NCBI GenBank assembly: GCA_029210905.1
Contig: JARGGF010000001.1
Coordinates: 1 to 29,571 of the forward strand
Direction: 5' to 3'
DNA length: 29,571 nucleotides
Source: Bacteroidales bacterium
GTDB lineage: Bacteria; Bacteroidota; Bacteroidia; Bacteroidales; NBLH01
Part shown: positions 10,793 through 29,571 of the stretch, in pieces
Position numbering within the stretch: the first letter of the stretch is position 1
How the letters are laid out: each line of letters starts with the position of its first letter
Notes under the pieces: generated by a model
Databases searched by the model: none
What the model was told of the DNA's origin: nothing
The model's input: only the letters and a program-made list of their open reading frames with translations
Program-made: the position numbers and the translations under genes

Positions 10793-10794
10793 TA

Positions 10795-13777: not shown

Positions 13778-14284
13778 TTATCCGAATTTCTTTTTAATCT
13801 CTTTTACCCAGGTTTTTACTCGTTCATCTGTTAAATCATCCTGATTTTCAGCATCTAACATTAAACCAACGAATTTATTGTTTCTTACGCCTCTGGAATT
13901 TTCATAGGTATAGCCTTTTGTTGAAGTTTCACCTATCACTTTAGCGCCTTGCTTTTCAAGTATATTTGTCATAATTCCGATGGCATCACCAAAATTTTCA
14001 GGATACCCTTTCTGGTCACCCAGACCAAAAATGGCGAAGGTTTTGCCCTTTAAATTCATGTCTTCAATGGCAGGTACAAATTCATCCCAATAATTAGGCA
14101 ATTCCCCGTCGAACCAGGTAGGTACTGAAAGTATTAAATTATCATAAGCAAGAAACTGATCTTCAGTCAGTTCCTCTGCATTTAAAGTATCAATTTCCGA
14201 TTTGCCAAAAGCATCTTTCACCTTTTCGGCTACTTTTGCTGAGTTTTTTGTGTTAAAACTGTAAATTACTGCTGTTTTGTTCAT
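13778..14284 (-). CDS. fldA: Long-chain flavodoxin
   Basis: VIYSFNTKNS (variant FMN loop), SVPTWFDGELP, AIFGLGDQKGYPENF, FVGLMLDAENQ. Confidence 0.93.
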   Translation of the reverse strand: MNKTAVIYSFNTKNSAKVAEKVKDAFGKSEIDTLNAEELTEDQFLAYDNLILSVPTWFDGELPNYWDEFVPAIEDMNLKGKTFAIFGLGDQKGYPENFGDAIGIMTNILEKQGAKVIGETSTKGYTYENSRGVRNNKFVGLMLDAENQDDLTDERVKTWVKEIKKKFG

Positions 14285-14443
14285 TTGATTCTATTCTCAA
14301 TTATACCTAAATCACTGAATTATAATTAATTAGCTGATAAAAATCAATCGTTAAGGATCTATTTTAGAGCAGCTCAAAAGGCCCGAAAAAAGCAATTCTT
14401 TTCAACTTGATTTCTGTACGCGGGCCATATTAATTTGCATATC

Positions 14444-14493
14444 AACCTGGGGCTCCACCCCTGGCTTTTATCTATCGCCCTTTCAGGGCTAAA
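14444..14493. repeat. REP-like GC-rich double-hairpin element
   Basis: - strand: agccctgaaagggcga-tagataaa-agccaggggtggagccccagg. Two short hairpins, the architecture I associate with REP elements next to IS200-like/RAYT transposases; no transposase in the window. Confidence 0.5.
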
Positions 14494-14520
14494 TGTTTAA
14501 AACTGAGTGTTTCTTTTCTC

Positions 14521-14560
14521 AATTCTAAATTCTAATATCTAAATTCTAATATCTAACTTC
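14521..14560. repeat. TCTAAAT/TCTAATA heptamer tandem repeat
   Basis: aattctaaattctaatatctaaattctaatatctaacttc, immediately after the E1 stop codon. Confidence 0.7.
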
Positions 14561-16677
14561 TAATACTGTAACAATTCCGCCGCTGCCTTATATATCCTTT
14601 CTTCATCTGGTAGAATGGCTTTTTCCAAAATTCTGTTAAAACCAACAGGTGTAAAAGTAGAACCAACCCTCCTAACAGGTCCATCAAGATATTCAAAGGC
14701 TTTTTCGTTAATCATGGAAGCCACTTCGCCTCCAAAACCACCAAATACTTTGTCTTCATGAACAATCAAAGCTTTTCCGGTTTTTTTCAACGATTCAATA
14801 ATCCCTTCTTCATCCAAAGGTATAAGCGATCTTAAATCAATCACTTCTATACTATAATCAGGGAATTCTTTTTCAAGTTTTTCCGCCACATTAATACACA
14901 TATGTGTAGTATTTCCGTAGGTAATGATTGTCAGGTCTTTACCTTCTTTTCTTACCCGTAATTTTCCAAAAGGTACTTCAAAATCCTCAGGTACATTTGC
15001 TGCTGCAATGGGTGAATTATAAAGCGATTTGGGTTCCATAAAGATGGTTGGCCCTTGTGATCGCATGGCTGTTCTAAGTAAACCTGCGGCATCATCGGCA
15101 TAGGAAGGATATACCACTCTTATGCCCGGAAAAGTGGTTAATGCACCTTCAATATTCTGTGAATGGTATAAGCCACCGCCAATATAACCTCCTGATGCTA
15201 AGCGTACTACTACATTTGGGCTAAATTGTCCCTTTGATCGCCAGTAATCATGAGTAAGTTCAACAAACTGCTCCATAGCAGGCCAAAAATAATCAGCAAA
15301 TTCAGCCCCTTCCACTACAATCCGTATTTTATCATCAAAACGGCTCATTCCATTGGCGGTTCCCAGTATATAATCCTCAGCAATTGGTCCGTTAAAAACC
15401 CGGGTTTCGCCAAACTCCTGTTGCATGCCTTTTGAAACATTAAAAATACCGCCTTTATCCTTATTGGCCATGTCCTGACCCCAAATAAAAGTGTCAGGGT
15501 TTTTTCTGAACTCTTCTTTTAAGGTCTGATTTAAAGCTTCAACCAACTTTAGTTTTTCACCAGAACCATCGGGTAAACCATCTTTAAATTTTTTAGGTTC
15601 GTAAGCAGGTGGTAATACAAAATCATAAATACTTTCAGGATCCGGATCTGGCGCAGCCAATGCAGTCCTATGCGCCTTTTTTACAATTTCTTTGGTCTCT
15701 GCCTCAATGGCCTGCAATTCTTCTTCAGTAAATCGTTTATAGCGCGTCAGTAACCTTCTGAACTTACCAAGCGGATCATATTCTTTAACGTAATTGAGCT
15801 CATAATCATCACGATACAATTCATGCCTGTCAGAATTTGAGTGAGAATGAATTCTGATACAATTAGCATGAACAATACAGGGTTTTTGATTTTCAATGAC
15901 CCATTGCTTAGCCTCTTCCATTGCATTCATTGAATCAAACAAGTCTTTTCCGTTGGTGTGGATAATACGCAGGTTTTTAAGTCCTGTGAAATTATCCGCT
16001 ACTTTTCGGTTGGCAGTTTGATCTTTTTTAGGCACTGAAATACCATAACCATTGTCCTGAAAAACAAAAATAACGGGCAACTGTTCGTTGGATGCTCCGT
16101 TAATTGCCTCATATACATAGCCTTCCGAGACCGACGATTCACCTTGCGAACTGATCGAAACTCCTTTATGATTGTAAACTTTCATGGCACGCCCTACTCC
16201 AACTGCGTGCAAAGTATGATTACCAGTTGCCGACGAAACGTTATGGATATTCCATTCAGGCTTTGCAAAATGATTAGACATATGCCTTCCACCTCCAGCA
16301 ACATCAGTATCTTTTGAAATTCCATTAAATATTATTTCTTCAGGTGTAAGTCCTGCCGATAATGCAGTCATCATGTCCCTGTAATAGGGGAAAAGATGAT
16401 CTGTGTCCTTGTTAAATACCTGACCAATAGCAAGTTGAATTCCATCGTGACCTGCGTAGGGTGCATGGTACGACCAGCCAATGGCTTGTTTAAGGTAATT
16501 CGGAGCGCGGTCATCCAATGCCCTGCCCAGTACCATTAAACGAAACCATTTTTCAAGTGTTTGTTTATCAGTTGTTTTTATCGAATATTTCTTTTTAACT
16601 TCCAATTCTTCTGAATTAATTTCTATGTCCTGATTTTCTTCAGCTTTTTGTTTTTTTTCTAATATTGTATTTTCCAT
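14560..16677 (-). CDS. 2-oxoacid (probably branched-chain/2-oxoisovalerate) dehydrogenase E1, fused alpha+beta
   Basis: TPP-binding GESSVSEG...DNGYGIS, HSNSD, beta-domain GQD...GGIF, PIAE, HSQ and VHED motifs in a single 705 aa chain. Substrate is inferred from the Bacteroides-type E2-E1-flavodoxin arrangement. Confidence 0.93.
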   Translation of the reverse strand: MENTILEKKQKAEENQDIEINSEELEVKKKYSIKTTDKQTLEKWFRLMVLGRALDDRAPNYLKQAIGWSYHAPYAGHDGIQLAIGQVFNKDTDHLFPYYRDMMTALSAGLTPEEIIFNGISKDTDVAGGGRHMSNHFAKPEWNIHNVSSATGNHTLHAVGVGRAMKVYNHKGVSISSQGESSVSEGYVYEAINGASNEQLPVIFVFQDNGYGISVPKKDQTANRKVADNFTGLKNLRIIHTNGKDLFDSMNAMEEAKQWVIENQKPCIVHANCIRIHSHSNSDRHELYRDDYELNYVKEYDPLGKFRRLLTRYKRFTEEELQAIEAETKEIVKKAHRTALAAPDPDPESIYDFVLPPAYEPKKFKDGLPDGSGEKLKLVEALNQTLKEEFRKNPDTFIWGQDMANKDKGGIFNVSKGMQQEFGETRVFNGPIAEDYILGTANGMSRFDDKIRIVVEGAEFADYFWPAMEQFVELTHDYWRSKGQFSPNVVVRLASGGYIGGGLYHSQNIEGALTTFPGIRVVYPSYADDAAGLLRTAMRSQGPTIFMEPKSLYNSPIAAANVPEDFEVPFGKLRVRKEGKDLTIITYGNTTHMCINVAEKLEKEFPDYSIEVIDLRSLIPLDEEGIIESLKKTGKALIVHEDKVFGGFGGEVASMINEKAFEYLDGPVRRVGSTFTPVGFNRILEKAILPDEERIYKAAAELLQY

Positions 16678-16733
16678 GATATTAAAATTTTCAGTACTTT
16701 CAATTGATTTTATGCATTTTGGCCAGCCAAGAA

Positions 16734-18041
16734 CTAAATATCTGAATTCTTGTCAAATGCTTCAATATAATCTGCTACTTTACGTAAAAATGCACCACCC
16801 AGGGCACCATCAACCACTCGATGGTCATAGGTAAGTGATAAGAACATTTTATGGCGAACTGCAATCACATCTCCGGCCTCAGTTTCAACAACAGCTGGTT
16901 TCTTTTCAACGGTTCCTACTGCCATAATAGCTACTTCGGGCTGATTGATAATAGGTGTCCCCATTACATTTTTAAACGACCCAAAATTAGAAACTGAGAA
17001 AGTTCCACCAGAAACATCATCAGGACCCAATTTGTTATTGCGTGCTGCGTTTGCCAGTCGGTTTAATTCTTTGGTCATGCCTAAAACATTCAACCTGTCA
17101 GCATTTTTTATCACCGGAACTATTAAGTTTCCATTGTCCAGGGCAACCGCAATACCCAGATTTATATTTTTACGTAAAATAATGTTATTGCCATCAACCG
17201 ATGCATTTACACCAGGAAAATCCTTCAATGCTTTTGCCATTGCTACAAGGAATACGGGCAAGAAACTAATCTTTTCTTTTTCCCTTGCATAGAAAGTGTC
17301 TTTAATTTTATTGCGCCACTCAACCACATTGGTTACATCAGCCTCAACCATAGATGTTACGTGGGGAGCAACGTGTTTTGAGGTGACCATTCGCTCAGCT
17401 ATCATCCGGCGCATACGGCTCATTTCAACTATCTCATCCTCAGCGCCTACTGATACGCTTACTTTATGTATTTGCTGAGTTTGCTGTATTTGTTCTTTTG
17501 GCTTTTCAACTTGTTGATTTGAAGATTTTCCGTTTGATCCGCCATTAGATTTTCTATTGTCAATAAACTCAATAATATCATGTTTGGTCACTCTGTTATT
17601 TGTGCCACTTCCAGATATAGCTTCAAGTTCTTCAAGGCTTACATTTTCCTGTTGGGCTATACTTTTTACCAATGGTGAATAAAAGCGGCTTCCTTCCTTG
17701 TTGGCTTCTTTCAAAGATGAATTTCCATTGTTTGAAACCTTTACTTGTTCAATTTGTGATTCTTCAACTTTTTCTTCCTTTTCTTCATCATCTGCCGATC
17801 CTTCAAGTGCAATGTGGGCAATTATTTTACCCACTTCAACCAGGTCGTTTTCGGCAAATAATATTTTATTTATTACACCAGCAACTGGCGATGGAATTTC
17901 AGAATCGACCTTATCTGTGGCAATCTCTAAAATAGGATCGTCTTCTTCCACAGTATCGCCTTCTTTTACAAACCATTTGGTAATAGTGGCTTCTTGCACA
18001 CTTTCACCCAGCTTAGGCATTATTAAATCAAATTTTGACAT
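16734..18041 (-). CDS. Dihydrolipoamide acyltransferase (E2) of the 2-oxoacid dehydrogenase
   Basis: Start refined to the ATG at 18041 (MSKFDLIMPKLGES). Lipoyl motif ATDKVDSE, E3-binding domain (FYSPLV...GSG...RVTK), catalytic YDHRVVDG. Confidence 0.95.
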   Translation of the reverse strand: MSKFDLIMPKLGESVQEATITKWFVKEGDTVEEDDPILEIATDKVDSEIPSPVAGVINKILFAENDLVEVGKIIAHIALEGSADDEEKEEKVEESQIEQVKVSNNGNSSLKEANKEGSRFYSPLVKSIAQQENVSLEELEAISGSGTNNRVTKHDIIEFIDNRKSNGGSNGKSSNQQVEKPKEQIQQTQQIHKVSVSVGAEDEIVEMSRMRRMIAERMVTSKHVAPHVTSMVEADVTNVVEWRNKIKDTFYAREKEKISFLPVFLVAMAKALKDFPGVNASVDGNNIILRKNINLGIAVALDNGNLIVPVIKNADRLNVLGMTKELNRLANAARNNKLGPDDVSGGTFSVSNFGSFKNVMGTPIINQPEVAIMAVGTVEKKPAVVETEAGDVIAVRHKMFLSLTYDHRVVDGALGGAFLRKVADYIEAFDKNSDI

Positions 18042-18230
18042 TATTTTTGTGTATTTAATTTTACTTTCATTTCTATATTTCATTCAGTCAGTTACAAAAA
18101 ACTAACTAACATGCTCATTTAAAACCGAATAGGGTTTATTTAAATGTTTTTCTTTAGCAACAAATAAGAAGCTTATTTAGAATAAACAAAATAAATAAAA
18201 GATTTTCAGACTTCTTTATCTTTTATTGCG

Positions 18231-18238
18231 CAAAGATA
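18231..18238 (-). promoter_or_regulatory. -7 promoter element (TATCTTTG) for the E2-E1-flavodoxin operon
   Basis: + strand CAAAGATA in the AT-rich divergent intergenic region, about 190 nt upstream of the E2 ATG. Confidence 0.55.
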
Positions 18239-18328
18239 AGGAAAGAATTTTATTTAGACTAGTTCTAAATAGTGAAATTATATAAATTTAACTTATTAGC
18301 TTATAGATAAAAATGATATTGATAGGAA

Positions 18329-18346
18329 TGGTGAAATCTTTCAATT
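18329..18346. promoter_or_regulatory. Possible Rex-like operator
   Basis: TGGTGAAATCTTTCAATT matches 13 of 18 positions of TTGTGAAATATTTCACAA; lies between two divergent redox operons. The region is AT-rich, so chance is possible. Confidence 0.25.
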
Positions 18347-18713
18347 TGTTAAAAATGTATAAACCAATTAGGTCAACCAATATGCAAAATTACCTTATTT
18401 CTTTGTAACATCCTATTTTTCTATGACTTAACAATTTGTAAGACTCTTATGTTAGAATTTCTTTGCCTTAAGCCCAGGTAAACAAAATAATCCAGTTTTG
18501 TTCTAAATAATTTAATTAATATCTTGGCAAACCTGCTGAAAAAGGGGATAAGCTTTTGTTTTGATTCAAATTTCGGACTAATGAAAAAGAAAGTATTTTA
18601 ATTTGCAGTATAATGGTTAAATGTTAGTGGTTATACGTTATTTGTTAATCCGCTAAAACAATTAACTTATAACAATTAACCAATAACTTCTACAGAACAA
18701 ATAAGAACACTCT

Positions 18714-18944
18714 ATGAACAACTTGGTTAATAATCAACATGATACAAACAGGAGGAATTTCATAAAATCAATCATTAGGAACTTTTTACTTCTTGGACTT
18801 GCTTTTACCAGTATATTCCTGGTTTTCAAAGAAGATGATGGCGAAGAATGTAACTTTGATTTTGTATGCAGATCATGTAAAAAATCAAAAGGCTGTTCGC
18901 TCCCTGAAGCAAAAAATTATCGTTCAAATAAATTAAGGGTATAG
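18714..18944 (+). CDS. Small membrane-anchored Cys4 protein with twin-Arg-like motif
   Basis: NRRNFIK, a TM segment (FLLLGLAFTSIFLVF), then C-x5-C-x2-C-x5-C (CNFDFVCRSCKKSKGC). First gene of the operon; 3 nt gap to the next ATG. Confidence 0.72.
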   Translation: MNNLVNNQHDTNRRNFIKSIIRNFLLLGLAFTSIFLVFKEDDGEECNFDFVCRSCKKSKGCSLPEAKNYRSNKLRV

Positions 18945-18947
18945 GTT

Positions 18948-19523
18948 ATGGACGAAAATGTTAAGAGGATCGATCGTCGTGATTTTATCAACAGTGCCCT
19001 TCGCATTTCTGTTGGTATTGCAGTAGGAAGCATTGGTGGTGTTTTGCTTGCCAGAACCTCAAAAGACGATATGGTCTGGCAGCTTGATCCGGCTAAATGC
19101 GTACAATGTGGAAGGTGTGCAACCAGCTGTGTTTTAACACCTTCGGCAGTAAAATGTGTGCATGTATACAACATGTGTGGTTATTGCGATTTATGTGGTG
19201 GCTACTTCAGGCCCGAAGCTAAAAATTTAACCACAGCAGCTGAAAACCAACTTTGTCCAACAGCAGCCATAGAACGAAAATATATCGAAGACCCATTTTT
19301 TGAATACCACATTAATGAGGATTTGTGCATTGGATGCGGCAAATGTGTTGAAGGCTGTGGTTCGTTCGGAAACGGTTCCATGCAATTACAGGTTCGCCAT
19401 GATTTGTGCGTTAACTGCAACCAGTGTGCTATCGCAAGGGATTGTCCTGCTGATGCATTTAGCAGGGTATCAAGAGAAAGCCCTTATATTTTCAAAGGAT
19501 TTAGTACGGATGAAACTACATAA
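18948..19523 (+). CDS. Membrane-anchored polyferredoxin (about four [4Fe-4S]) with twin-Arg-like N-terminus
   Basis: DRRDFIN plus a hydrophobic helix; CVQCGRCATSC, CGYCDLC...LCP, CIGCGKCVEGC and CVNCNQCAIARDCP (17 Cys). Confidence 0.88.
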   Translation: MDENVKRIDRRDFINSALRISVGIAVGSIGGVLLARTSKDDMVWQLDPAKCVQCGRCATSCVLTPSAVKCVHVYNMCGYCDLCGGYFRPEAKNLTTAAENQLCPTAAIERKYIEDPFFEYHINEDLCIGCGKCVEGCGSFGNGSMQLQVRHDLCVNCNQCAIARDCPADAFSRVSRESPYIFKGFSTDETT

Positions 19524-19599
19524 ATTTCAAATAGCAAAATACAATTTCCAATTTTTACTGAAATTGCCAGCAATTAAAATTCAAACTTTATTAGCAACA

Positions 19600-20871
19600 A
19601 TGAACAGCAACAAAATAAAAATAATTGTTTTATTTATCCTCCTTGGAATTCAAACTGTTGCTATCTCGGGTCCCCGTTTCCCAATGCCCGAATTTGAGTC
19701 GGGGCATACACAGCCACCTACGCTCCAACCTGAACCAAGGTCAGACTTTTTCGAAATTTTTGATGCTTTTGTGCTGATTGCCGCATTGACAGTTATAACC
19801 TGGCTCATTCATAAAAAACGCTCAAGAAGAGGTGTTTTTTGGGTTTCAATTTTCTCCCTTCTTTATTTTGGATTTATTCGCGAAGGGTGTATTTGTTCTA
19901 TTGGGGCTATACAAAATATTACGCTTGCATTGTTCAACCCCTCTTATCAAATACCTGCTACTGTTATCGCTTTTTTTGTTATCCCATTGATTTACACCTT
20001 GTTCTATGGAAGAACCTTTTGCGCGGGAGTTTGTCCTTTGGGTGCTATCCAGGATATTTTTGCTTTGCAACCAGTAGATTTAAAAACCTGGGTACAAAAA
20101 ATCTTAGGCCTTATCCCTTTCATTTATCTGGGACTGGCTATTTTATATGCTGCCACCAGTACTGATTTTATTATTTGCCGGTACGACCCATTTGTGGGTA
20201 TTTTCAGGCTTGATGCTACCTTCTTTATGTTTAGCATTGGAGCACTTTTTATTATCACCTCAGTTTTTATTGCAAGGCCTTATTGTCGGTTTTTCTGCCC
20301 TTATGGTGTTCTTCTTAACTTAATTAGCAGGGTTTCTAAAAAACATGTTGAAATAACGCCCACGCATTGCATTAATTGCAGGTTATGTGAAAATTCTTGT
20401 CCATTTGGAGCCATTGAAAAACCAGTTCCGGTTAAAGAGATTGGGAATAAAAATACCGCCTTACGAAAATTCATGACCCTAAGTTTCATTATCCCACTTT
20501 TAATATTTATTGGAGGCTGGACCGGATCTCAGTTTCACGAAAACCTGGCCATGGTAAATGCCGATGTAAGACTGGCAAATGAAATATTAACCACTGATTT
20601 ACAGGATAAAACAATAGAGTTTTCAGAAGAAATAAAAGCTTTCAAAAGCTCCGGTAAAACTGCTGATGAAATTTATGCAAAAGCCAACGAAATTTTAGAT
20701 GATTTTTACATAGGTGGCTGGATACTAGGTGGATTTATTGGGCTGGTATTCGGAATAACCCTTGCAAGTGTTTCAATATTCAGATACAGAGAAGATTATA
20801 AAACAAATAAGGGAGAATGTTTCAGTTGTGCCAGGTGCTTTGATTATTGTCCGGTAAAGGTTGAAAGTTAA
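19600..20871 (+). CDS. NapH/MauN/NosR-C-like polytopic membrane Fe-S protein
   Basis: True start is the ATG at 19600; the track extension overlaps the upstream gene. CICSIGAIQ, FCAGVCPLG, YCRFFCPYG, CINCRLCENSCP and C-terminal CFSCARCFDYCP; multiple TMs. Confidence 0.88.
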   Translation: MNSNKIKIIVLFILLGIQTVAISGPRFPMPEFESGHTQPPTLQPEPRSDFFEIFDAFVLIAALTVITWLIHKKRSRRGVFWVSIFSLLYFGFIREGCICSIGAIQNITLALFNPSYQIPATVIAFFVIPLIYTLFYGRTFCAGVCPLGAIQDIFALQPVDLKTWVQKILGLIPFIYLGLAILYAATSTDFIICRYDPFVGIFRLDATFFMFSIGALFIITSVFIARPYCRFFCPYGVLLNLISRVSKKHVEITPTHCINCRLCENSCPFGAIEKPVPVKEIGNKNTALRKFMTLSFIIPLLIFIGGWTGSQFHENLAMVNADVRLANEILTTDLQDKTIEFSEEIKAFKSSGKTADEIYAKANEILDDFYIGGWILGGFIGLVFGITLASVSIFRYREDYKTNKGECFSCARCFDYCPVKVES

Positions 20872-20879
20872 ATTAATAA

Positions 20880-20967
20880 CTCTGTGCCCCTCCGTGTTTC
20901 TCTGTGCAACTCTGTGAAATAACCTATTGCACAGAGGCTCACAGAGTTTTCACAGAGGTACACAGTG
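20880..20967. repeat. Inverted array: 4x CTCTGTG followed by 4x CACAGAG, phased at 10-11 bp
   Basis: ctctgtg 20880, ctccgtg 20890, ctctgtg 20900, ctctgtg 20910; 13-nt spacer; cacagag 20930, 20940, 20951, cacagtg 20961. Confidence 0.9.
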
Positions 20968-20975
20968 AAAATAAA

Positions 20976-22820
20976 ATGAAAATGCAGGAAAATAACCATA
21001 AAAAAGTAAACGTCCGGTTATGGAAAAGAATCGTGCTTATCGCAGCTGTTTTTTCCCTCTTAACCGCTTTATTGCTCATTGCCAATTACATACAACTAAA
21101 TAGGGCAGATCCGGTTAACACTAAAACCATCAATATGCTGGTGGAACGTCTCAATCAAAACCCTGATGATGATGCACTTAGGAATGAAATCAGGGAACTG
21201 GATTTATTGGCCCGTAAAGCATATTTTACCAATCAATGGCAAATAAGAACAGGTGCTTATCTTTTATTAATTGGAATAATTGTAGTGGTGGTGGCGCTGC
21301 AAATTATAAAATCAGCAAAGGGTATTGAACCTGAGATTCCTGCTGAAAAAGGTCTGGATTTTCTTTCAAATCAGGTAATTACCAGAAAATGGGTATCTAT
21401 TAGTGGTATTTCTTTGGTTGGAATTGCTCTTCTTTTTGCTTTTTTAACACATAACAAACTGGGTAATGCGATAACACAGGCATCTACCAGTACCCAGACT
21501 GACACTATCTCAAGCAAGCTAGCTGTAAACAGTAATAATACTATAGAAACCAGCACAATGGTTTCTGATTCTATGACTACTAGTGAAGTAGCTGAAAATC
21601 AAGATACTGCCACAAACGAAAATGATGTAGATACTACAACCAAAGTGTTATCTGAATATCCAACATATAAAGAAATTATACAGAATTTTCCTTGCTTTAG
21701 AGGTCCTGGAGGTAATGGAATTGCATATCAGAAAAATGTTCCTACCAGTTGGGATGGCGCTTCAGGTGCAAACATAAAATGGAAGTTTGCAGTTCCGCTT
21801 CCTGGTTTTAATTCACCTGTGGTTTGGGAAGACAAAGTATTTATTTCAGGAGCAAATGCAACAACAAGAGAGGTTTATTGTATTGATAGAAATACTGGTA
21901 AATTATTATGGAAGGCACCAGTTGTAAATGTACCTGGTTCTCCTGGGACTTCCCCCAAAGTTACAGACGATACCGGACATGCTGCCCCAACTTTGGCTGT
22001 TGATGGACGCAGGGTTTATGCGATTTTTTCAAACGGTGATATTATTGCCCTTGATATGGACGGGAACAAAGTCTGGGCCAGGAACCTGGGAACACCATCT
22101 AATCATTATGGACATTCATCTTCGCTGATGTTATTTAATAATATGGTTATCATACAATACGACCAAAAAAACTCACCAAAGGTGATGGCTTTATCAACAA
22201 CTACCGGAAAAACTATCTGGAGTACCGCCCGTGAAGTAAAAATTTCATGGGCATCACCAGTAATTGTATATACTGGCCAACAAACTGAAATCATCTTATC
22301 TTCAGATCCTTACGTGGCATCTTACAATCCATGGTCGGGTAAGGAAAACTGGCGCATCGACTGTATTTTTGGTGAGGTAGGCCCTTCAGTGGCTTATGCC
22401 GATGGCCTTGTGTTCGCTCAGAATGAGTATGCCAGATTGGTAGCCATTAAAATTGGCGAAAAACCAGAAATTTTGTGGGAGTCTGACGAATATTTATCTG
22501 ACGTTCCCAGCCCGGTTGCTACTAAAGATTATTTATTTTCAGCAACCAGCTATGGTGTAGTAGTTTGTTACGAAGCCAAAACATGCAAAAAATTATGGGA
22601 ACAAGAGTTCGGAAATGGTTTCTATTCATCGCCAATGATGGTAGGTGGAAGAATATATCTGTTTGATAGAAAAGGAGTTGCACATATTTTCTCGGCCAGC
22701 GGAACTTATAAAAGTCTTGGTGAACCAAAATTGGGTGAAGATGTGGTAAGCACCCCTGCTTTTGCTGATGGGCAATTGTTTATCAGGGGGTCGAAGAATT
22801 TATATTGTATTGGAAAATAA
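20976..22820 (+). CDS. Three-TM membrane protein with C-terminal BamB/PQQ-like beta-propeller
   Basis: Start refined to the ATG at 20976 (or 20982). Three hydrophobic helices, a Ser/Thr-rich linker, FPCFRGPGGNG, then repeated W-containing blades (IKWK, LLWK, KVWAR, TIWS, ENWR, ILWE, KLWE). Confidence 0.88.
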   Translation: MKMQENNHKKVNVRLWKRIVLIAAVFSLLTALLLIANYIQLNRADPVNTKTINMLVERLNQNPDDDALRNEIRELDLLARKAYFTNQWQIRTGAYLLLIGIIVVVVALQIIKSAKGIEPEIPAEKGLDFLSNQVITRKWVSISGISLVGIALLFAFLTHNKLGNAITQASTSTQTDTISSKLAVNSNNTIETSTMVSDSMTTSEVAENQDTATNENDVDTTTKVLSEYPTYKEIIQNFPCFRGPGGNGIAYQKNVPTSWDGASGANIKWKFAVPLPGFNSPVVWEDKVFISGANATTREVYCIDRNTGKLLWKAPVVNVPGSPGTSPKVTDDTGHAAPTLAVDGRRVYAIFSNGDIIALDMDGNKVWARNLGTPSNHYGHSSSLMLFNNMVIIQYDQKNSPKVMALSTTTGKTIWSTAREVKISWASPVIVYTGQQTEIILSSDPYVASYNPWSGKENWRIDCIFGEVGPSVAYADGLVFAQNEYARLVAIKIGEKPEILWESDEYLSDVPSPVATKDYLFSATSYGVVVCYEAKTCKKLWEQEFGNGFYSSPMMVGGRIYLFDRKGVAHIFSASGTYKSLGEPKLGEDVVSTPAFADGQLFIRGSKNLYCIGK

Positions 22821-22825
22821 AAAGC

Positions 22826-22902
22826 AGTGCCTTAAGTGCCCTAAAGTTTAAAGTACTTAGAGTTAAAATAGCAACAAAACTTAGCGCCTTTGCGCCTTTG
22901 CG
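22826..22902. repeat. Two adjacent microrepeats: AGTGCCT/AGTACTT family and CTTTGCG family
   Basis: agtgccttaagtgccctaaagtttaaagtacttagagtt (22826-22864); cttagcg 22880, ctttgcg 22888 and 22896 (period 8). Confidence 0.65.
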
Positions 22903-22910
22903 AGAAAGAA

Positions 22911-25259
22911 ATGAACGAATCAATCATAAATACCGTTGACCAAATAATAGCTGAAAAAGGGATAACTTCAAATGCGGTTATCCCTATTCTTCAGGCTATC
23001 CAGGAAAAATTTAATTATTTGCCCGAAGATGCCCTGAAAAGAGTGTGTGAAAATACAGACATCACTCAATCACAAATTACTGGGATATCAACTTTTTATT
23101 CACAATTCAGGCATAAGCCTGTAGGTGAGCATATTATAAAGGTTTGTGTTGGGACTGCCTGTCATGTAAAAGGTGCTTTACAGGTTTACGATTCATTCAA
23201 AAGAACGCTAAAACTTAAAGACAAAGAAGATACAGATAAGAACGGACTTTATACCATTGAAAAAGTAGCTTGCCTGGGCTGCTGCACCATTGCCCCTGTG
23301 GTTCAGATAGATAACATTACTTATGGCAATGTTGAAACAGAAAAAGTACCTGAAATACTTGACGACTTTATCTTAGCGAAAAATAATACAGAAACAAGTA
23401 TTGTTAAAACCTACCAAAATAACAGCCTGGTTCAGGGTGAAATAAGGGTAGGCCTGGGCTCCTGCTGTGTGGCAAGCGGAAGTGCCGATGTTAAAAACGA
23501 ATTAGAGAAAACATTGGCTAACAATAAGATACATGTGGATGTGAAACATGTTGGCTGTGTGGGAGTTTGCAATCAGGTGCCATTGCTGGAAATTCACAAA
23601 CCCAACATGGAACCTGTCTACTATGCCAAAATTAAGCCCGATGAAGTAAAACAAATTATCCAAACGCATTTTAGGGCAAACCGACTGATTGATCGTCTAA
23701 AAAATCAATTCTTTTTGTTTTTCGAAAACATGCTGGTGGAAAACCTTCCGCAAACTGTGAAAAGATATGCTTCAGATCATCGTGATACACCAATTGCAGA
23801 ATTCCTGAACGGACAGATTTCCATTGCCACCGAACATCGAGGCCAATTAAAACCATCTGATATTGAGGAGTATAAAAAAAAGGGAGGTTTCAATTCATTT
23901 CTAAAATGTATTAAAGAATATTCACAGGATCAGTTAATCGAAATCATCCGACAAAGTGGTTTAAAAGGCCGTGGAGGAGGAGGATTCCCTTCAGCAATAA
24001 AATGGCAGATGGTTAAAGATGCCAAAGCTGAAAAAAAATACATCATTTGCAATGGTGATGAAGGTGATCCGGGTGCATTTATGGATAGAATGTTGCTTGA
24101 ATCCTATCCCTATAGAGTAATAGAAGGGATGCTGATTGCGGCTTATGCAGTGGGGGCACAGGAAGGTATTTTCTACATCAGGGCTGAGTATCCACTTGCT
24201 GTTCAGCGAATTAATGAAGCTTTAGCAATATGCAGGCAAGAAAATTACCTTGGTAAAAATATTCAGGGAACTGATTTTTCAATCAATTTTAAAATATTCG
24301 AAGGTGCGGGTGCCTTTGTTTGTGGTGAAGAAACCGCATTGATTGCTTCTATTGAAGGAAAAAGAGGTTTGCCTTCCATGCGCCCACCCTACCCTGCTGA
24401 AAGTGGTTTGTGGGATGGGCCTACTTTAATAAATAATACAGAAACATTGGCGCTGGTTCCATGGATAGTAAGAAACGGCGCAGAAGCCTTCAATCAAATA
24501 GGAACTAAAAACAGCACGGGTACTAAAGTTTTTGCACTGGCAGGCAAAGTAAAACGGGGAGGGCTTATAGAAGTACCTATGGGGACAACGATACATCAGG
24601 TAATTGAAGAAATAGGTGGTGGCATTGCCAACGATAAACAATTTAAAGCAGTACAAATTGGCGGACCATCAGGAGGTTGTATCCCTGCCTCATTATCAGC
24701 CACTCCAATCGACTATGAATCGCTGGAAAAATTAGGAGCCATGATGGGTTCTGGCGGACTCATTGTTTTGGACGAAACAGATTGTATGGTTGATATTGCT
24801 AAGTATTTTCTGTCCTTTACCCAGGACCAAAGCTGTGGAAAATGCACTTTCTGCAGAATTGGGACTAAACGTATGCTTGAAATACTTGAAAAAATTACCA
24901 GAGGGCAAGGTGTTTTGAAAGATCTGGAAATACTTGAGCAATTAGCCGAAAGCACAAAAAAAGGAAGTATCTGCGGATTGGGAAGAACTGCTCCAAATCC
25001 AATTTTATCGACACTCCACTATTTTAGAGAGGAATATTTAGCACATATTAATGGCACTTGCCCTTCAGGAAAATGCACTGAATTAATCACATACAGTATT
25101 ACAGATGATTGCATCGGCTGTACCATTTGTGCGCAAAAATGCCCCTCGGATGCCATACCACTGAATCCTTATAAAAAGCATGAAATTATTAATGATAAAT
25201 GCATTAAGTGTGATGTTTGCAGGCAGGTTTGTCCGGAAAAAGCTGTATTAGTAAAATAA
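22911..25259 (+). CDS. NuoE-NuoF (HydC-HydB / BfuC-BfuB) fusion: NADH/FMN-binding Fe-S flavoprotein
   Basis: Start at the ATG at 22911. NuoE part CVGTACHVKG...ACLGCC; second thioredoxin-like domain GLGSCC...GCVGVC; GLKGRGGGGFP, CNGDEGDPGAFMDR, GAFVCGEETAL, GGPSGG, SCGKCTFCRIG...SICGLG, HINGTCPSGKC; C-terminal CIGCTICAQKCP and CIKCDVCRQVCP. Confidence 0.93.
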   Translation: MNESIINTVDQIIAEKGITSNAVIPILQAIQEKFNYLPEDALKRVCENTDITQSQITGISTFYSQFRHKPVGEHIIKVCVGTACHVKGALQVYDSFKRTLKLKDKEDTDKNGLYTIEKVACLGCCTIAPVVQIDNITYGNVETEKVPEILDDFILAKNNTETSIVKTYQNNSLVQGEIRVGLGSCCVASGSADVKNELEKTLANNKIHVDVKHVGCVGVCNQVPLLEIHKPNMEPVYYAKIKPDEVKQIIQTHFRANRLIDRLKNQFFLFFENMLVENLPQTVKRYASDHRDTPIAEFLNGQISIATEHRGQLKPSDIEEYKKKGGFNSFLKCIKEYSQDQLIEIIRQSGLKGRGGGGFPSAIKWQMVKDAKAEKKYIICNGDEGDPGAFMDRMLLESYPYRVIEGMLIAAYAVGAQEGIFYIRAEYPLAVQRINEALAICRQENYLGKNIQGTDFSINFKIFEGAGAFVCGEETALIASIEGKRGLPSMRPPYPAESGLWDGPTLINNTETLALVPWIVRNGAEAFNQIGTKNSTGTKVFALAGKVKRGGLIEVPMGTTIHQVIEEIGGGIANDKQFKAVQIGGPSGGCIPASLSATPIDYESLEKLGAMMGSGGLIVLDETDCMVDIAKYFLSFTQDQSCGKCTFCRIGTKRMLEILEKITRGQGVLKDLEILEQLAESTKKGSICGLGRTAPNPILSTLHYFREEYLAHINGTCPSGKCTELITYSITDDCIGCTICAQKCPSDAIPLNPYKKHEIINDKCIKCDVCRQVCPEKAVLVK

Positions 25260-25279
25260 CCATAACGAAAACTTATATT

Positions 25280-26614
25280 ATGAGTTTTGAAATTGATAAT
25301 CAGACACTAAGAGATTTAAATATATTTCCAAATAAGAAGAAAGAACAATCCATTTTTGACTTATTCAAACAAACCAAAACAGTAGGTGGGCAAAATACAC
25401 TTATTCGTTTAATGAAAAATCCGCTGAACAATTTTGAACAACTTTCAGAAAGAGTTGAGGCCATCCGATATTTTCAAGACAATAATATTGCTTTTCATTT
25501 TATTGACAGAAACCTTGAATTTATTGAACATTACCTTAACTTAAACATGCCTGTGCTTCGAAAAGGGTGGATTTTTGCCCTATCCGATTGGTTAAGTGAT
25601 GTTATTTTACCTACAAATGAATATTTTGCAATTAAACGTGGCTTAAAGTTCTTACAGCAATTTTTACTTCAATTAAAGATTTATATTGAGAGTATTCAGC
25701 TTACGGAATATCCTGAATATTTTAATAGCGTCATAAATGAATTTAACTTGCTTAATACTAGCGATCTATTTAAATCTTTTTTAGCTCTCTCAGATAAAAA
25801 AATCAATCGCTTAAAATCAGTAAATAGCTTTGATAATTTAATACGTAAAAAGTCAAAAGACGATCTTCTAAAATTAATAAGCAAAATATACGAAATTGAT
25901 TCATTGAGAACTGTTGCTCTGGTATCGAAAGAAAACAATTATTGTCTGCCTGATTATACTCAAAACAACTCTTCATTATTGAATATCGACAACTTATTCC
26001 ATCCATTTGTTAATGAGCCAATTACTAATAGTTTTTCTTTCAATGAGCAAACAAATATGTGCTTTTTGACAGGTGCAAATATGGCTGGAAAATCAACCTT
26101 CTTAAAATCAGTCGGTTTGTGCTGTTACTTGGCACATTTAGGATTTCCTGTACCTGCAAGCAAAATGGAAACCAGCATTTATAGTGGTTTAATTACTGCT
26201 ATAAATCTATCAGATGATGTTACCAAAGGTTATAGTCATTTTTATTCTGAAGTAAAAAGAGTTAAGAATACAGCAATAAGTATTAAAGAAAAAAAGAAGA
26301 TCCTGGTTATTTTCGATGAACTGTTTAGAGGAACTAATGTAAAAGACGCCTATGATGCTTCATTAATGATAACTGCAGCATTTGCAAAAATTAAACACTG
26401 TGCATTTTTTATTTCGACCCATATAGTGGAAATTGCTGAGGAATTAAAAAATGAAGACAATATCATTTTCAAATATTTTGAATCGGAAGTGGTTAACGAA
26501 ATCCCCGTCTATAGTTACAAGTTAGCAAATGGAGTTTCTGCAGACAGGCATGGGCTGAGAATAGTTAAAAATGAAAAAATAGTTGAAATACTTGAGGGAA
26601 TAATTAATGAATAA
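25280..26614 (+). CDS. MutS-related ATPase (domain III remnant plus domain V only; no mismatch-binding domain)
   Basis: Start refined to the ATG at 25280. DNQTLRDLNIF, Walker A LTGANMAGKSTF, SHFYSEVKRV, Walker B IFDELFRGTN, FISTH. Confidence 0.88.
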   Translation: MSFEIDNQTLRDLNIFPNKKKEQSIFDLFKQTKTVGGQNTLIRLMKNPLNNFEQLSERVEAIRYFQDNNIAFHFIDRNLEFIEHYLNLNMPVLRKGWIFALSDWLSDVILPTNEYFAIKRGLKFLQQFLLQLKIYIESIQLTEYPEYFNSVINEFNLLNTSDLFKSFLALSDKKINRLKSVNSFDNLIRKKSKDDLLKLISKIYEIDSLRTVALVSKENNYCLPDYTQNNSSLLNIDNLFHPFVNEPITNSFSFNEQTNMCFLTGANMAGKSTFLKSVGLCCYLAHLGFPVPASKMETSIYSGLITAINLSDDVTKGYSHFYSEVKRVKNTAISIKEKKKILVIFDELFRGTNVKDAYDASLMITAAFAKIKHCAFFISTHIVEIAEELKNEDNIIFKYFESEVVNEIPVYSYKLANGVSADRHGLRIVKNEKIVEILEGIINE

Positions 26615-26679
26615 CAAATTTTACTTACCAATAAAGCGGATGCATATTAAGAATGAGATAGTTACAATGACAATTATTG

Positions 26680-26717
26680 CACGGAGATTCACAGAGTCAA
26701 CATAGAGGTTCACAAAG
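26680..26717. repeat. CACAGAG half-array (4 units, 10/11/10 spacing)
   Basis: attg-cacggag 26680, cacagag 26690, catagag 26701, cacaaag 26711; same layout as 20930-20967, including the attg prefix. Confidence 0.8.
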
Positions 26718-26846
26718 TAAAAGCCAAAATTGACTCTATGAATGAAAATTATTGAAACCTAAACAATTAAAGAACGGAATTAAACGATTTATAAATGATT
26801 AGCTATATGTTTACTATTGTTAAACAAAATATCTAACACCTAACAA

Positions 26847-26883
26847 CTCTGTGAAACTCTGTGTTTCTCAGTGAAACTCAGTG
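26847..26883. repeat. CTCTGTG half-array (4 units, 10-bp spacing)
   Basis: ctctgtg 26847 and 26857; ctcagtg 26867 and 26877. Confidence 0.85.
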
Positions 26884-26920
26884 TAACAGATTGTATACCA
26901 ATGAAATAGCAATAAAACGA

Positions 26921-28486
26921 ATGATAAAACTCAAAATTAATAATATAGAAACACAGGTTGAAAATGGAACCTCCGTTCTAAAGGCCGCTGAACAAGCAGG
27001 TTTTAAAATACCTTCCATGTGCTTTAAAGAAGGTTATTCCAATCACCCTTCATGCATGGTGTGCATGGTAAAGGACAATAAAAATGGTAAGCTTTTCCCT
27101 TCCTGTGCCATTGCAGCAACCGAAGGTATGGATATTATTACTGATGATGATGAAGTAAAACAATCAAGAAAGGAAGCACTTGAGCTGTTGCTGAGCGACC
27201 ATGTGGGTGATTGCGAAGCTCCTTGCCAGCCATCATGTCCGGCCAACATGAATATTCCATTGATGAACCGCCTGATTGCCGAAGGAAAATTTGCCGAATC
27301 GCTAAAAGTAGTAAAAGAAGCTATTGCCCTTCCGCTAATTTTGGGCTACATCTGCCCTGCGCCATGCGAAAAGGCTTGTCGTCGCGGACAGATAGATAGC
27401 CCCGTTTCTATTTGTATATTAAAGAAATACGTGGCCGTGGAGGATCTCAAAAACGAAACATTTTACCTGCCCGAAAAACAAAAAAAATCAAATAAAAAAG
27501 TAGCCATCATCGGTTCAGGTCCGGGCGGATTGTCAGCTGCTTTTTATTTATTAAAACTAGGCCACGATTGTGTTATTTTCGATAAAAATGAAAAAGCCGG
27601 AGGAACCCTTCGCTACGAAATTCTTGAAAACCAATTGCCAAACGAGGCTATTGATAAAGAAGTGGAAGTGCTTATAAAATATGGAGCTAAATTTCAATTT
27701 AATACCAACATTACCAAAGAAATTTTTGAAAATGAGATAAGAAAAAATTTCGATGCAATTATTTTAGCTACAGGAAATTACGAAGGTTCAGTTATTGAAA
27801 ATTTTGGTTTTGAAAGTGGTAAATCGGGCATCAATATCAATAAAGATACCTACGAAACCAGTATTCCCGGAATATTTGCCTGTGGAAATATTATCCGTTC
27901 CAGGCGAATGGCCATAAACTCTGTGGCGCAGGGTAAAATTGCAGCTGAATCGGCTCATGCATTTTTGAATGGACAAACACCTGAAGCTAAACATCGTATG
28001 TTCAACTCAAAATTTGCCAAACTTCTTGAAGAAGAGTTTGAGGAATATTTGAAAGAATCAATACCTGAAAACAGGGTTGAACTAGAAAATGGCAAAATGG
28101 GCGATTTTTCAATGGAAGAAGCCATGTTGGAAGCCAAACGCTGCCTGCATTGCGACTGCCGCAAAATTGATAATTGCAAATTGCGCATTTTCTCAGATGA
28201 ATACAGCGCAGATAGAAAAAAATTCGATTTTGGTGAACGAAAAATCATCAAAAAATATGATCAGCATGAATTAGTAATTTACGAATCGGAAAAATGCATC
28301 AGGTGCAATTTATGCGTTGATATCACTATGAAAAACAGTGAGTTAACAGGTTTGTCAAGCATTGGCAGGGGATTCACAGTTGAAATAAATATACCATTTA
28401 ATCAATTATTGAGTGCCGCATTAACTAAAACAGCCATTGATTGTGTTGAATCGTGCCCGACGGGGGCGTTGGCTTTTAAAAAATAG
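26921..28486 (+). CDS. HydA/NuoG-N-terminal Fe-S protein with an inserted, internally truncated GltD/NfnL-like FAD domain (BfuA-like)
   Basis: Start at the ATG at 26921. [2Fe-2S] CFKE...SCMVC...SCA; LLLSDHVGDCEAPC; CPANMNIP...GYICPAPCEKACRR; KVAIIGSGPGGLSAA; TSIPGIFACG; EAKRCLHCDC...CKLR; KCIRCNLC; CVESCPTGAL. Confidence 0.9.
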   Translation: MIKLKINNIETQVENGTSVLKAAEQAGFKIPSMCFKEGYSNHPSCMVCMVKDNKNGKLFPSCAIAATEGMDIITDDDEVKQSRKEALELLLSDHVGDCEAPCQPSCPANMNIPLMNRLIAEGKFAESLKVVKEAIALPLILGYICPAPCEKACRRGQIDSPVSICILKKYVAVEDLKNETFYLPEKQKKSNKKVAIIGSGPGGLSAAFYLLKLGHDCVIFDKNEKAGGTLRYEILENQLPNEAIDKEVEVLIKYGAKFQFNTNITKEIFENEIRKNFDAIILATGNYEGSVIENFGFESGKSGININKDTYETSIPGIFACGNIIRSRRMAINSVAQGKIAAESAHAFLNGQTPEAKHRMFNSKFAKLLEEEFEEYLKESIPENRVELENGKMGDFSMEEAMLEAKRCLHCDCRKIDNCKLRIFSDEYSADRKKFDFGERKIIKKYDQHELVIYESEKCIRCNLCVDITMKNSELTGLSSIGRGFTVEINIPFNQLLSAALTKTAIDCVESCPTGALAFKK

Positions 28487-28532
28487 GACACTGATTTTTA
28501 AGATTATTATTATTTAATATGATACAATCAGC

Positions 28533-28626
28533 CTTTGTGAAAAACTTTGTGAAACATTGTGTTACAATAATAAATTCATAAATAGGAGCACAAAGTCCCT
28601 CAAAGGAATCACAAAGTTCCACCATG
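28533..28626. repeat. Variant inverted array CTTTGTG / CACAAAG
   Basis: ctttgtg 28533 and 28545, cattgtg 28555; spacer; cacaaag 28589, ctcaaag 28599, cacaaag 28610, caccatg 28620. Confidence 0.7.
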
Positions 28627-28639
28627 AAATAAATTAAGA

Positions 28640-29571
28640 ATGAAAAAGATACTTGCACTGTTATTTCTAATCTTTCCTTTAATTTCAAAAGCCCAAAGTT
28701 CCACCTGCTGGCCATCCTTTAGGGGTAATTCAGCAATGACTGGCACAACTAACATTAAATTATCCAACTCGCCAGAACTGCTTTGGTCTTTTAAAACAGG
28801 TGATGGAATTAAATCATCGCCAATTTATTGCAATAAAAATATATTTATTGGTTCAAACGATGGATTTGTTTATTCGATTTCATCAAAGGGAAAGTTAAAC
28901 TGGAAATATAAAACAACAGCTTCTATAGAAGCCGCTCCACTTTATCTTAATCATATTCTTTATGTCAGTTCACTTGAAGGTATTTTATATTCCATTGATG
29001 CCTTATCCGGCAAATTAAAATGGAAATATGCTACTGAAGGTCAGATTTCAGGCTCTTCAACCTGGGTATTTTCGCCAGATAAAAAAAGTAAATACGTTCT
29101 TACTGGCAGCTACGATTATTTTTTGCATGCAGTAGACATGAATACAGGAAAAGCAGTCTGGAAGTATGAAGCTGACAATTACATCAATGGAGCACCCTGT
29201 ACCAATGGAAAAGTAGCACTTTTTGGTGGCTGCGATGGCTATCTGCATATTGTTGATGTTCAGACAGGTAAGGCAGAAAAACTGGATATTGGAACCTATA
29301 TAGCTTCTTCTGCGGCAATCAGCGACAGCCTGTGTTTTTTTGGCAATTACGATGGTGATTTTTATTGTGCAGATTTTGCGAACAAAAAAATCATATGGAA
29401 ACATACAGGATCAGGTCCGTTTTTAGCTTCTCCTGCGGTGTTTGGAAATAAAGTAATTATTGGTTCACAGGACAAAACCATATATTGTTTTAATAAGACA
29501 GATGGAAAAGTATTGTGGAAGTTTAAAACCCTGGGTAAAGTCGATGGATCCGCAATAATATCAGGAGATAA
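28640..29571 (+). CDS. Secreted BamB/PQQ-like beta-propeller protein (partial, runs off the right edge; absent from the ORF track)
   Basis: Hand translation: MKKILALLFLIFPLISKAQSSTCWPSFRGNSAMTG...LLWSFKTGDGIKSSP...LNWKYKT...LKWKYATEG...GSYDYFLHAVD...AVWKYEADNYINGAP...FGGCDGYLHIVD...; no stop before 29571. Confidence 0.9.
   Translation, partial: MKKILALLFLIFPLISKAQSSTCWPSFRGNSAMTGTTNIKLSNSPELLWSFKTGDGIKSSPIYCNKNIFIGSNDGFVYSISSKGKLNWKYKTTASIEAAPLYLNHILYVSSLEGILYSIDALSGKLKWKYATEGQISGSSTWVFSPDKKSKYVLTGSYDYFLHAVDMNTGKAVWKYEADNYINGAPCTNGKVALFGGCDGYLHIVDVQTGKAEKLDIGTYIASSAAISDSLCFFGNYDGDFYCADFANKKIIWKHTGSGPFLASPAVFGNKVIIGSQDKTIYCFNKTDGKVLWKFKTLGKVDGSAIISGD

Follow-up and report, generated by a model that had tools for sequence, protein, structure and literature searches.

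The Rnf and Na+-NQR complexes link NADH and/or ferredoxin to the membrane, and an intramembrane Cys-bound Fe-S centre carries electrons across the bilayer. Among flavoproteins of the NuoF type, the Bfu cores are distinguished by an N-terminal [2Fe-2S] domain, a CxxxxC motif and two C-terminal [4Fe-4S] clusters, which plain NuoF proteins lack (Schut et al., 2022, PMC9304861). In another proposal, a NapH-like (PF12801) membrane Fe-S protein is the trans-membrane electron carrier for a range of modular partners in the periplasm, among them propeller oxidases of the pyrroloquinoline quinone (PQQ) type (PMC8238504). In this study, we analyzed a contig from a Bacteroidales bacterium (JARGGF010000001.1, contig C343 of its assembly; positions 1-29571, referred to below as the window), in which genes resembling parts of these systems stand together. 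With moderate confidence, we propose that seven conserved genes of the window (g1-g5, g7, and g8) are the core of one envelope-spanning redox system.

The window is the entire contig, and no DNA follows position 29571 on it; the source assembly consists of 1231 contigs and is 82.6% complete. Eight genes on the + strand, g1-g8, extend from position 18714 to the contig end, downstream of a 630-bp divergent, AT-rich gap. An earlier note, made from the sequence alone, had listed seven of them, and all seven were found on the + strand with the domains it gave (Pfam, NCBIfam family models); a MutS-family ATPase gene between g5 and g7 (g6) had been omitted. The same note called the genes closely spaced, which is true of g1/g2 (3 nt) and g5/g6 (20 nt) but not of the other junctions (76-306 nt). 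Its statement that the window holds no hydrogenase H-cluster, Mo/W, NiFe, or Nuo/Rnf membrane subunit was confirmed by Pfam screening of the 24 open reading frames (ORFs).

Cofactor motifs of the conserved proteins

The g5 gene (22911..25259, + strand) was identified from Pfam, NCBIfam, and PDB matches as a fused BfuC-BfuB flavoprotein of the NuoE-NuoF type, with a flavin mononucleotide (FMN)/NADH site, two [2Fe-2S] domains, an N3-type [4Fe-4S] cluster, a CxxxxC motif, and two C-terminal [4Fe-4S] clusters. The NuoE-like BfuC part covers residues 17-159 (2Fe-2S_thioredx, 1.9e-49), and the NuoF part is recognized by Complex1_51K (2.5e-44) and NADH_4Fe-4S (8e-32). Sequence search of the PDB gave E values of 1e-201 to 1e-206 for the BfuB chains 9bov_B, 9n5u_B (NfnB), and 8oh5_B, compared to about 1e-100 for non-bifurcating NuoF proteins. 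The protein aligns along the whole BfuB chain of NfnABC, and every cluster Cys and the FMN loop are matched. The GRGGGGFP loop and the CGKCTFCR...CGLG motif correspond to the NuoF-type FMN/NADH site and B1 [4Fe-4S] cluster of NfnB, residues 177-262 (a thioredoxin-like domain) to the N-terminal [2Fe-2S] domains of 9bov_B and 9n5u_B, and the CPSGKC motif and two CxxCxxCxxxCP motifs (Fer4_21 at residues 739-785) to those of NfnB; all three extra cluster features of BfuB are thus present. Judged by these motifs, g5 has the complete BfuBC cofactor set known from electron-bifurcating/confurcating NADH/ferredoxin flavoproteins, and the "bifurcating-type flavin module" of the earlier note is supported at the sequence level.

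The product of g7 (26921..28486, + strand) was assigned by Pfam and PDB alignment as a BfuA-type Fe-S flavoprotein akin to NfnA/StnA. It comprises Fer2_4 ([2Fe-2S]), a His-ligated [4Fe-4S] motif, Fer4_20 (GltD-type clusters), a flavin adenine dinucleotide (FAD) domain, and Fer4_Nqo3. These are the domains of the HydA-N/GltD hybrid described earlier, but the loss of an NADPH domain had been missed. NfnA/StnA chains (9bov_A, 8oh5_C) are the best matches, with g7 residues 2-292 aligned to chain residues 4-293 and 277-518 to 426-672. The skipped chain residues, 294-425, are the NADPH Rossmann domain (~130 aa), which is deleted in g7, and no second GxGxxG/A motif is found; the alignment ends near residue 672 of ~1170, and the C-terminal molybdopterin-like domain is absent. 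The FAD-fold GxGxxG is invariant across 40 g7 orthologues, and in some lineages the protein has only 321-351 aa and no FAD domain. By alignment, g7 descends from an NfnA/StnA-like protein; it is an adaptor of the BfuA type that has lost the ability to bind NADP(H). NADP(H) was considered as the third substrate and rejected on the ground of this deletion; because the NADPH domain (in some lineages also the FAD domain) has been lost, the third partner of g5-g7 would have to be a different one.

The membrane Fe-S protein is encoded by g3 (19600..20871, + strand), which has about eight predicted helices, two Fer4_5 hits in Pfam, and 15 Cys that are invariant among orthologues. Two CX3CP motifs (C141/C145/P146 and C229/C233/P234) and two ferredoxin-type [4Fe-4S] motifs (CxxCxxCxxxCP, C257-C267 and C407-C417) are invariant, align with those of true NapH, and are predicted to face the cytoplasm. 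Several features set g3 apart from true NapH: invariant C97 and C99 (in a GCxCS motif) and C193; a conserved PRFPxPEFESG segment, which comes after an additional helix at the N-terminus; and a helical insert of ~70 aa flanked by two more helices. The segment and the insert are both predicted to be periplasmic. The topology of NapH, including the assignment of its periplasmic loops, is established, and the eight-helix topology of g3 agrees with the positive-inside rule and with the predicted helices. Because of this topology and the homology with NapH loops, C97, C99, and C193 are predicted to lie in periplasmic loops, where they could bind a cluster on the periplasmic side.

On the NapH/MauN model TIGR02163, g3 scores 56.9 bits against a cut-off of 213, whereas true NapH proteins of the same order score 217-324 bits. 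Of 151 genomes sampled from the order, 7 encode true NapH above the curated cut-off, and three of these (G026, G082, G107) also have a g3 orthologue; one true NapH gene sits in a canonical napA-napG-napH-napB cluster. The earlier label "NapH/MauN-like" is thus correct for the superfamily but not for the family; true NapH and NapG occur within the same order and differ from g3 and g2. These comparisons make g3 a NapH paralogue and not NapH itself. Nothing meaningful was found for g3 by sequence search of the PDB, and a fold search with its model (predicted local distance difference test score, pLDDT, 67) gave no solved relative; the sole match among reviewed AlphaFold entries was the uncharacterised MJ0750. 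Prediction of a g3+g7 complex from 40-row alignments gave no support for contact, a result that counts neither for nor against binding.

Four residues of the periplasmic loops, F92, Q105, P197, and R203, are common to g3 and true NapH, and NapGH is an established quinol dehydrogenase. This retained NapH core would suit a quinone-coupled system, in which g5, g7, and g3 form a heme-free NADH (plus ferredoxin):menaquinone oxidoreductase, g3 and g2 act as a NapGH-like menaquinol dehydrogenase, and the menaquinone pool, not a protein wire, crosses the membrane. Quinone-linked Bfu complexes have in fact been predicted (Schut et al., PMC9304861). True NapH, however, has neither the three periplasmic Cys of g3 nor its N-terminal segment and two extra helices, and no dedicated cytoplasmic donor gene stands beside it. 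We regard a quinone-coupled system as unlikely.

Two proteins could take up electrons on the outer face of the membrane. The product of g2 (18948..19523, + strand) is a polyferredoxin (Fer4 families in Pfam, orthologue alignment) with a twin-arginine motif (RRDFIN), one helix, and 16 invariant Cys in ferredoxin motifs, sufficient for four clusters; the RRxF motif and the Cys are invariant in 63 orthologues. The ORF of g1 (18714..18944, + strand) encodes a 76-aa protein with an RRNFIK motif, one transmembrane segment (residues 20-38), and a Cys4 knob of the form C-x5-C-x2-C-x5-C (C46, C52, C55, C61). Its RR motif and four Cys are conserved in an alignment of 25 orthologues, and it has no Pfam or NCBIfam family match. 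Both proteins have the RR motif before a hydrophobic stretch that marks twin-arginine translocation (Tat) substrates, and TatC is encoded in the genome (222 bits, contig C331). Both are therefore predicted to be located on the periplasmic face, with g2 tethered to the membrane. No TIGR00397 or NF007012 hit was obtained for g2, which places it outside the NapG/MauM family; a true NapG (genome G082) scores 315 bits and matches g2 with E 7e-5 over 54 aa, in the ferredoxin motifs only.

Two propeller proteins complete the set. The g4 gene (20976..22820, + strand) encodes, according to Pfam, alignment, and model, a conserved membrane module of three helices, which a low-complexity linker joins to an eight-bladed PQQ_2 propeller predicted to face the periplasm. 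The nearest solved structures to its model (pLDDT 72) in a Foldseek search are BamB, tetrathionate hydrolase, and PQQ alcohol dehydrogenases, with E values of 1e-16 to 1e-18, template modelling (TM) scores by target of 0.6-0.79, and identities of 11-18%. As modelled, these are matches of a generic eight-bladed propeller, from which function is not readable. The g8 gene (28640..29571, + strand) encodes a secreted PQQ_2 propeller with a signal peptide (Pfam) and is cut by the contig end after residue 310 of ~380; full-length orthologues have 367-397 aa. The BamB model TIGR03300 (cut-off 285) gave 76 bits for g4 and 105 bits for g8, and the PQQ dehydrogenase model TIGR03075 (cut-off 480) gave 47 and 61 bits for the propellers. 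BamB is a lipoprotein, whereas g4 is anchored by three helices and the signal peptide of g8 has no lipobox. The N-terminal three-helix module of g4 is system-specific and matches 729 representative clusters; near-identical architectures in the Atlas, whose commonest phylum is Bacteroidota or Planctomycetota, serve as a lead only. Conserved polar blade motifs in the g4 alignment (DTGH, NHYGHSSS, GEVGPS, NEYA, TSYG) may line a pocket.

Gene order, extended cluster, and distribution

Among 40 relatives searched, ten have g3 orthologues with E <1e-109, well apart from weak paralogues (E >1e-13). The order g1-g2-g3-g4-g5-g7-g8 is held in six of seven loci from other species and families of the order. 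When the g4 alignment was scanned against prokaryotic genomes, one for each species, at least 590 loci were obtained; gene order was examined in the best 80, and most of these hold the same order. Nearly all of the 80 are labelled Bacteroidales or Bacteroidota and two are labelled Chlorobiota; carriers include Marinifilum fragile, M. flexuosum, Ancylomarina euxinus, a Labilibaculum species, and Perlabentimonas gracilis. The core order is also found in distant metagenomic relatives, in which the g4 membrane module has an identity of 30-34%. The shared gene order is not chance, since it recurs in most of the 87 related loci (the seven from the order and the best 80 from the scan), and the conserved synteny by which the earlier note proposed to recognize a single system was indeed found.

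Overlaps of 4 nt between neighbouring genes are frequent in relatives. In two of these (L031, L032), g4/g5, g5/g7, and the glycosyltransferase/ABC ATPase genes discussed below overlap by 4-14 nt. Such overlaps between genes for membrane, periplasmic, and cytoplasmic proteins fit one operon with translational coupling. They also bear on the suggestion that these genes are neighbours with no electronic link, g5-g7 being a soluble Bfu enzyme that uses a soluble third substrate at an exposed FAD, and the membrane and propeller genes a merely co-regulated envelope system. The g7 FAD is left with no partner domain and could face a small molecule, and the g3-g7 complex prediction gave no contact support. 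Against this, several lineages whose g7 has no FAD domain still keep the whole cluster, and the g4-g5-g7-g8 order, which mixes cytoplasmic and periplasmic parts, is kept down to 30% identity, with stop/start overlaps. We attach little probability to such an unconnected arrangement.

The window carries only the core of a larger cluster. In related loci, the 5' part typically contains one to five propellers of ~410 aa, a further one of ~470 aa, and an NHL-like protein of ~320 aa, and g8 is followed by a GT4 glycosyltransferase, a LolD-like ATP-binding cassette (ABC) ATPase, and an FtsX permease of ~1000 aa; the GT4 gene is absent from the Marinifilum loci. No hydrogenase, formate dehydrogenase, molybdoenzyme, or Rnf/Nuo gene stands beside the cluster in the loci read. 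In the assembly studied here, the C-terminal part of g8 that the window lacks is found on contig C190, ahead of the GT4 gene, C521 carries the FtsX gene and a further propeller, and C883, C759, C1104, and C534 carry the array propellers and the NHL protein. The earlier note had warned that downstream genes might encode a standard catalytic subunit; those in relatives, represented here on C190 and C521, are the GT4, ABC ATPase, and FtsX genes.

Some details of the accessory proteins and of distant loci were recorded. The NHL-like protein (L031 4820-5806; orthologue on C759) has an invariant vicinal GCCNP Cys pair, and the GT4 protein (L031 14958-16253; orthologue on C190) an invariant N-terminal GGTFYCGNCLRD CxxC motif, both unusual for their families. 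In a distant variant (L111 7935-13077), g7 has 321 aa and no FAD domain, a PGA_cap protein is found in place of GT4, and a VanY D,D-carboxypeptidase domain forms one protein with the g8-like propeller. In locus L108 (1-5142), from a distant metagenomic relative, the cluster is preceded by co-oriented genes for a radical S-adenosylmethionine (SAM) protein, a DUF116-polyprenyl synthase fusion, and two prenyltransferase/squalene-hopene-cyclase-like proteins.

It could be argued from this gene content that the locus encodes an envelope-biogenesis machine with a redox sensor, in which BamB-like propellers would be scaffolds for GT4/ABC/FtsX export of a glycolipid or wall component and the Fe-S/flavin module would report or gate. 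The closest solved structures to g4 are BamB, the GT4, LolD-like ATPase, and FtsX genes follow the core in most loci, and distant variants have the VanY-fused propeller, PGA_cap, or terpenoid-synthesis genes. The chain of cofactors is too long for sensing, however (FMN and about seven cluster motifs in g5, several in g7, at least two in g3, and four in g2), and Marinifilum loci do without GT4. We find this reading highly improbable.

The distribution of the system was assessed in high-quality genomes drawn evenly from the order, using a threshold of E <1e-60 for g3 orthologues. An orthologue was found in 70 of 391 genomes, representing 51 of 226 genera, and was nearly always single-copy. The 400 high-quality genomes sampled across the phylum, of which almost all belong to other orders of the class or lie beyond it, gave no orthologue. 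In the sampled genomes of the phylum, the system tracks this anaerobe-rich order. Internal stop codons were observed in g3 orthologues of three genomes (G157:C68:43715-44937, G195:C188, and G349:C45), and the stop codons in these few orthologues of the order may reflect decay of the system.

Features peculiar to this genome and other genes of the window

The g6 gene (25280..26614, + strand), located between g5 and g7, encodes a 444-aa MutS-family ATPase (MutS_III and MutS_V; Pfam, NCBIfam) that has no mismatch-binding, Smr, or nuclease domain. It has no homologue in the 87 related loci and is therefore an insertion, outside the conserved system. Three paralogues are encoded elsewhere in the genome (C100, C673, C573), and PADLOC gave a marginal hit only, for g6. 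Small GxxExxY / PD-(D/E)XK_3 genes were observed at the g4/g5 or g5/g7 junctions of several relatives (among them L016 10212-10586 and L029 11877-12263). Together with g6, these genes indicate that the junctions are evidently insertion-tolerant.

Three intergenic regions contain arrays of heptamers. In the g3/g4 gap (20880..20970), four CTCTGTG-type heptamers face four of the CACAGAG type as inverted repeats, with a predicted hairpin of -40 kcal/mol. The g6/g7 gap (26680..26883) has two half-arrays of CTCTGTG-type heptamers ~130 nt apart, and the g7/g8 gap (28533..28626) a variant palindrome, CTTTGTG / CACAAAG, the latter two recognized from sequence and fold. The heptamers are spaced ~10-11 nt, and such arrays are rare genome-wide; the two closest species (L015, L016) are the only others whose operons were found to have similar ones, at other junctions. 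They could be elements like repetitive extragenic palindromes (REP) or regulator sites. In this genus, moreover, the propeller array is a separate four-gene operon, with two propellers of ~415 aa, one of ~476 aa, and the NHL-like protein.

The presumed promoter region of the operon is the 630-bp divergent intergenic region (18084..18713; AT-rich, 27% GC; predicted). The gene on its 5' side, on the - strand, encodes a 2-oxoacid dehydrogenase E2 component and belongs to a group at 13778-18083, divergent from the operon, that also includes a flavodoxin and a fused E1 alpha/beta 2-oxoacid dehydrogenase; these genes are not kept beside the cluster in relatives. Other products encoded in the window are thioredoxin-like and DCC1-like proteins, RuvC, an EamA transporter, a SpoIIE-type phosphatase, a heme-binding-domain protein, a rhodanese, a split YeeE pair, and an M28 peptidase. 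A ParE-family toxin gene is located at 1999-2319 and adjoins a 116-aa ORF with no family match. A link between the operon and the upstream sulfur-trafficking genes (7176-11973) was considered and rejected: no upstream gene of the window recurs beside the cluster in relatives.

Proposed electron path and comparison with known systems

If the seven conserved genes encode one system, the following path can be proposed. NADH, probably with reduced ferredoxin, would be oxidised at g5, and electrons would enter the cytoplasmic clusters of g3 by way of the Fe-S chain in g7. From there they would cross the membrane via g3, either directly through Cys-bound clusters, as with the intramembrane [2Fe-2S] of Nqr/Rnf, or by means of bound menaquinone, then reach g2 and g1 and be used at or near the propellers. 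Most likely, the system would serve anaerobic Bacteroidales with a largely fermentative metabolism as an electron sink, or as a supply of reductant, outside the cytoplasm. Since GT4 and a LolD/FtsX-type ABC machine extend the cluster in relatives, we would place the end reaction in the cell envelope. Synteny argues for a single system; that its modules touch, which way electrons flow, and what the substrate is are matters of inference.

Several observations weigh against this proposal. No PQQ or metal ligand set is recognisable in g4, the propellers show no recognisable cofactor site, and the protein that they most closely resemble, BamB, is a scaffold. The periplasmic-loop residues shared with NapH mean that a quinone site may persist in g3, which is then not necessarily a pure Fe-S wire. 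Binding of g5/g7 to g3 is presumed, and the sequences would allow electrons to flow either way. Finally, the propeller array can stand apart from the core: in one relative it lies ~70 kb away on the same contig (L105, G002:C15 10027-15010), and genome G011 (97% complete) has the array (L106, G011:C99 8981-13976) with no g3/g4 orthologue found; for the loci L105-L107, the reading was confined to ORF lists. It follows that the parts are separable.

As the sequences leave the direction free, flow might also be inward: a low-potential periplasmic donor would be oxidised on the propeller/ferredoxin side and BfuBC would bifurcate electrons to NAD+ and ferredoxin, making the system an electron-uptake device. 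Bfu enzymes are known to be reversible (PMC9304861; Xiao et al., 2025, PMC12018979). The carriers, however, are mostly fermentative heterotrophs that need sinks and not donors (PMC5760507, for Labilibaculum), and no recognisable H2, formate, sulfide, or metal oxidase is encoded in the cluster, which makes an uptake device very unlikely in our view.

A more specific version of outward flow can be formulated, which we put forward as speculative and consider distinctly unlikely in its entirety. In this version, g3 would be a heme-free, quinone-independent Fe-S wire driven by NADH and reduced ferredoxin confurcation at the Bfu core. Fermentative Bacteroidales would thereby have a dedicated sink for electrons outside the cytoplasm (for example, for Fe(III)/Mn(IV) reduction in Labilibaculum), and the propellers would be the acceptor-binding or catalytic end. 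Fermentative reduction of Fe(III)/Mn(IV), with an unexplained mechanism, has been reported for strains of Labilibaculum (PMC5760507). That a Labilibaculum species carries the cluster and that strains of the genus reduce metals may be related, and this parallel is taken as a lead only.

If the modules do cooperate, they would provide anaerobes with a new route, with no cytochromes in the pathway, to export low-potential electrons. The cytoplasmic clusters of NapH-type proteins would gain a physiological donor of the kind long sought, and the Bfu family, in which 17 clades have no assigned function, a membrane-linked third branch. The system could bear on reductant disposal by fermenters in sediments, bioreactors, and possibly guts. 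With about one in six sampled genomes of the order carrying it, and with cultivable carriers in Marinifilum, Labilibaculum, Ancylomarina, and Perlabentimonas, the system lends itself to genetic and biochemical work.

Literature searches gave no description of this gene combination, in keeping with the earlier note, which could name no characterised complex of this composition. The Bfu survey (PMC9304861) names no such cluster, and NapH and PQQ do not occur in its text. Relative to the Bfu family (NfnABC/StnABC; PDB 9n5u, 8oh5, 9bov), g5 has the full BfuC and BfuB domain and Cys set, but BfuC and BfuB are fused and the genes are embedded among membrane and periplasmic genes. With NfnA/StnA, g7 has in common the [2Fe-2S], His-[4Fe-4S], and GltD-type clusters, the FAD fold, and the next Fe-S domain; it differs in having neither an NADPH Rossmann domain nor the C-terminal domain that accounts for ~500 aa of StnA. 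Nfn-type BfuA subunits combine a GltD/NfnL-type FAD domain with the NADPH Rossmann domain, a combination that g7 does not have, and the enzyme therefore cannot be an NADH-dependent ferredoxin:NADP oxidoreductase.

NapGH, MauMN, and clade II NosGH likewise combine a Tat-type periplasmic polyferredoxin with a membrane protein that has two CX3CP and two cytoplasmic ferredoxin motifs. In contrast to these pairs, g3 falls far under the NapH/MauN cut-off, g2 lies outside NapG/MauM, and no NapA, NapB, NapC, NosZ, or methylamine dehydrogenase (MADH) gene is present here. The NapH-like systems associated with flavinylation (Meheust et al., 2021, eLife) are defined by a domain that is absent from the eight window proteins and the accessory proteins scanned; in the present operon, Fe-S proteins are the carriers in the periplasm, and the donor encoded for the cytoplasmic side is of the Bfu type. 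With Rnf/Na+-NQR the likeness is a functional analogy only, as no homologue of their subunits was found here beyond generic ferredoxin motifs. The fold of the g4 propeller is like that of BamB, tetrathionate hydrolase, and PQQ alcohol dehydrogenases, but its anchor consists of three helices and not of a lipid. The system may represent a new kind of trans-membrane electron path. In its gene content, the locus is best compared to a Bfu enzyme joined to a NapGH-like relay, and the system would appear to be a membrane-linked Bfu-type system with a new NapH paralogue.

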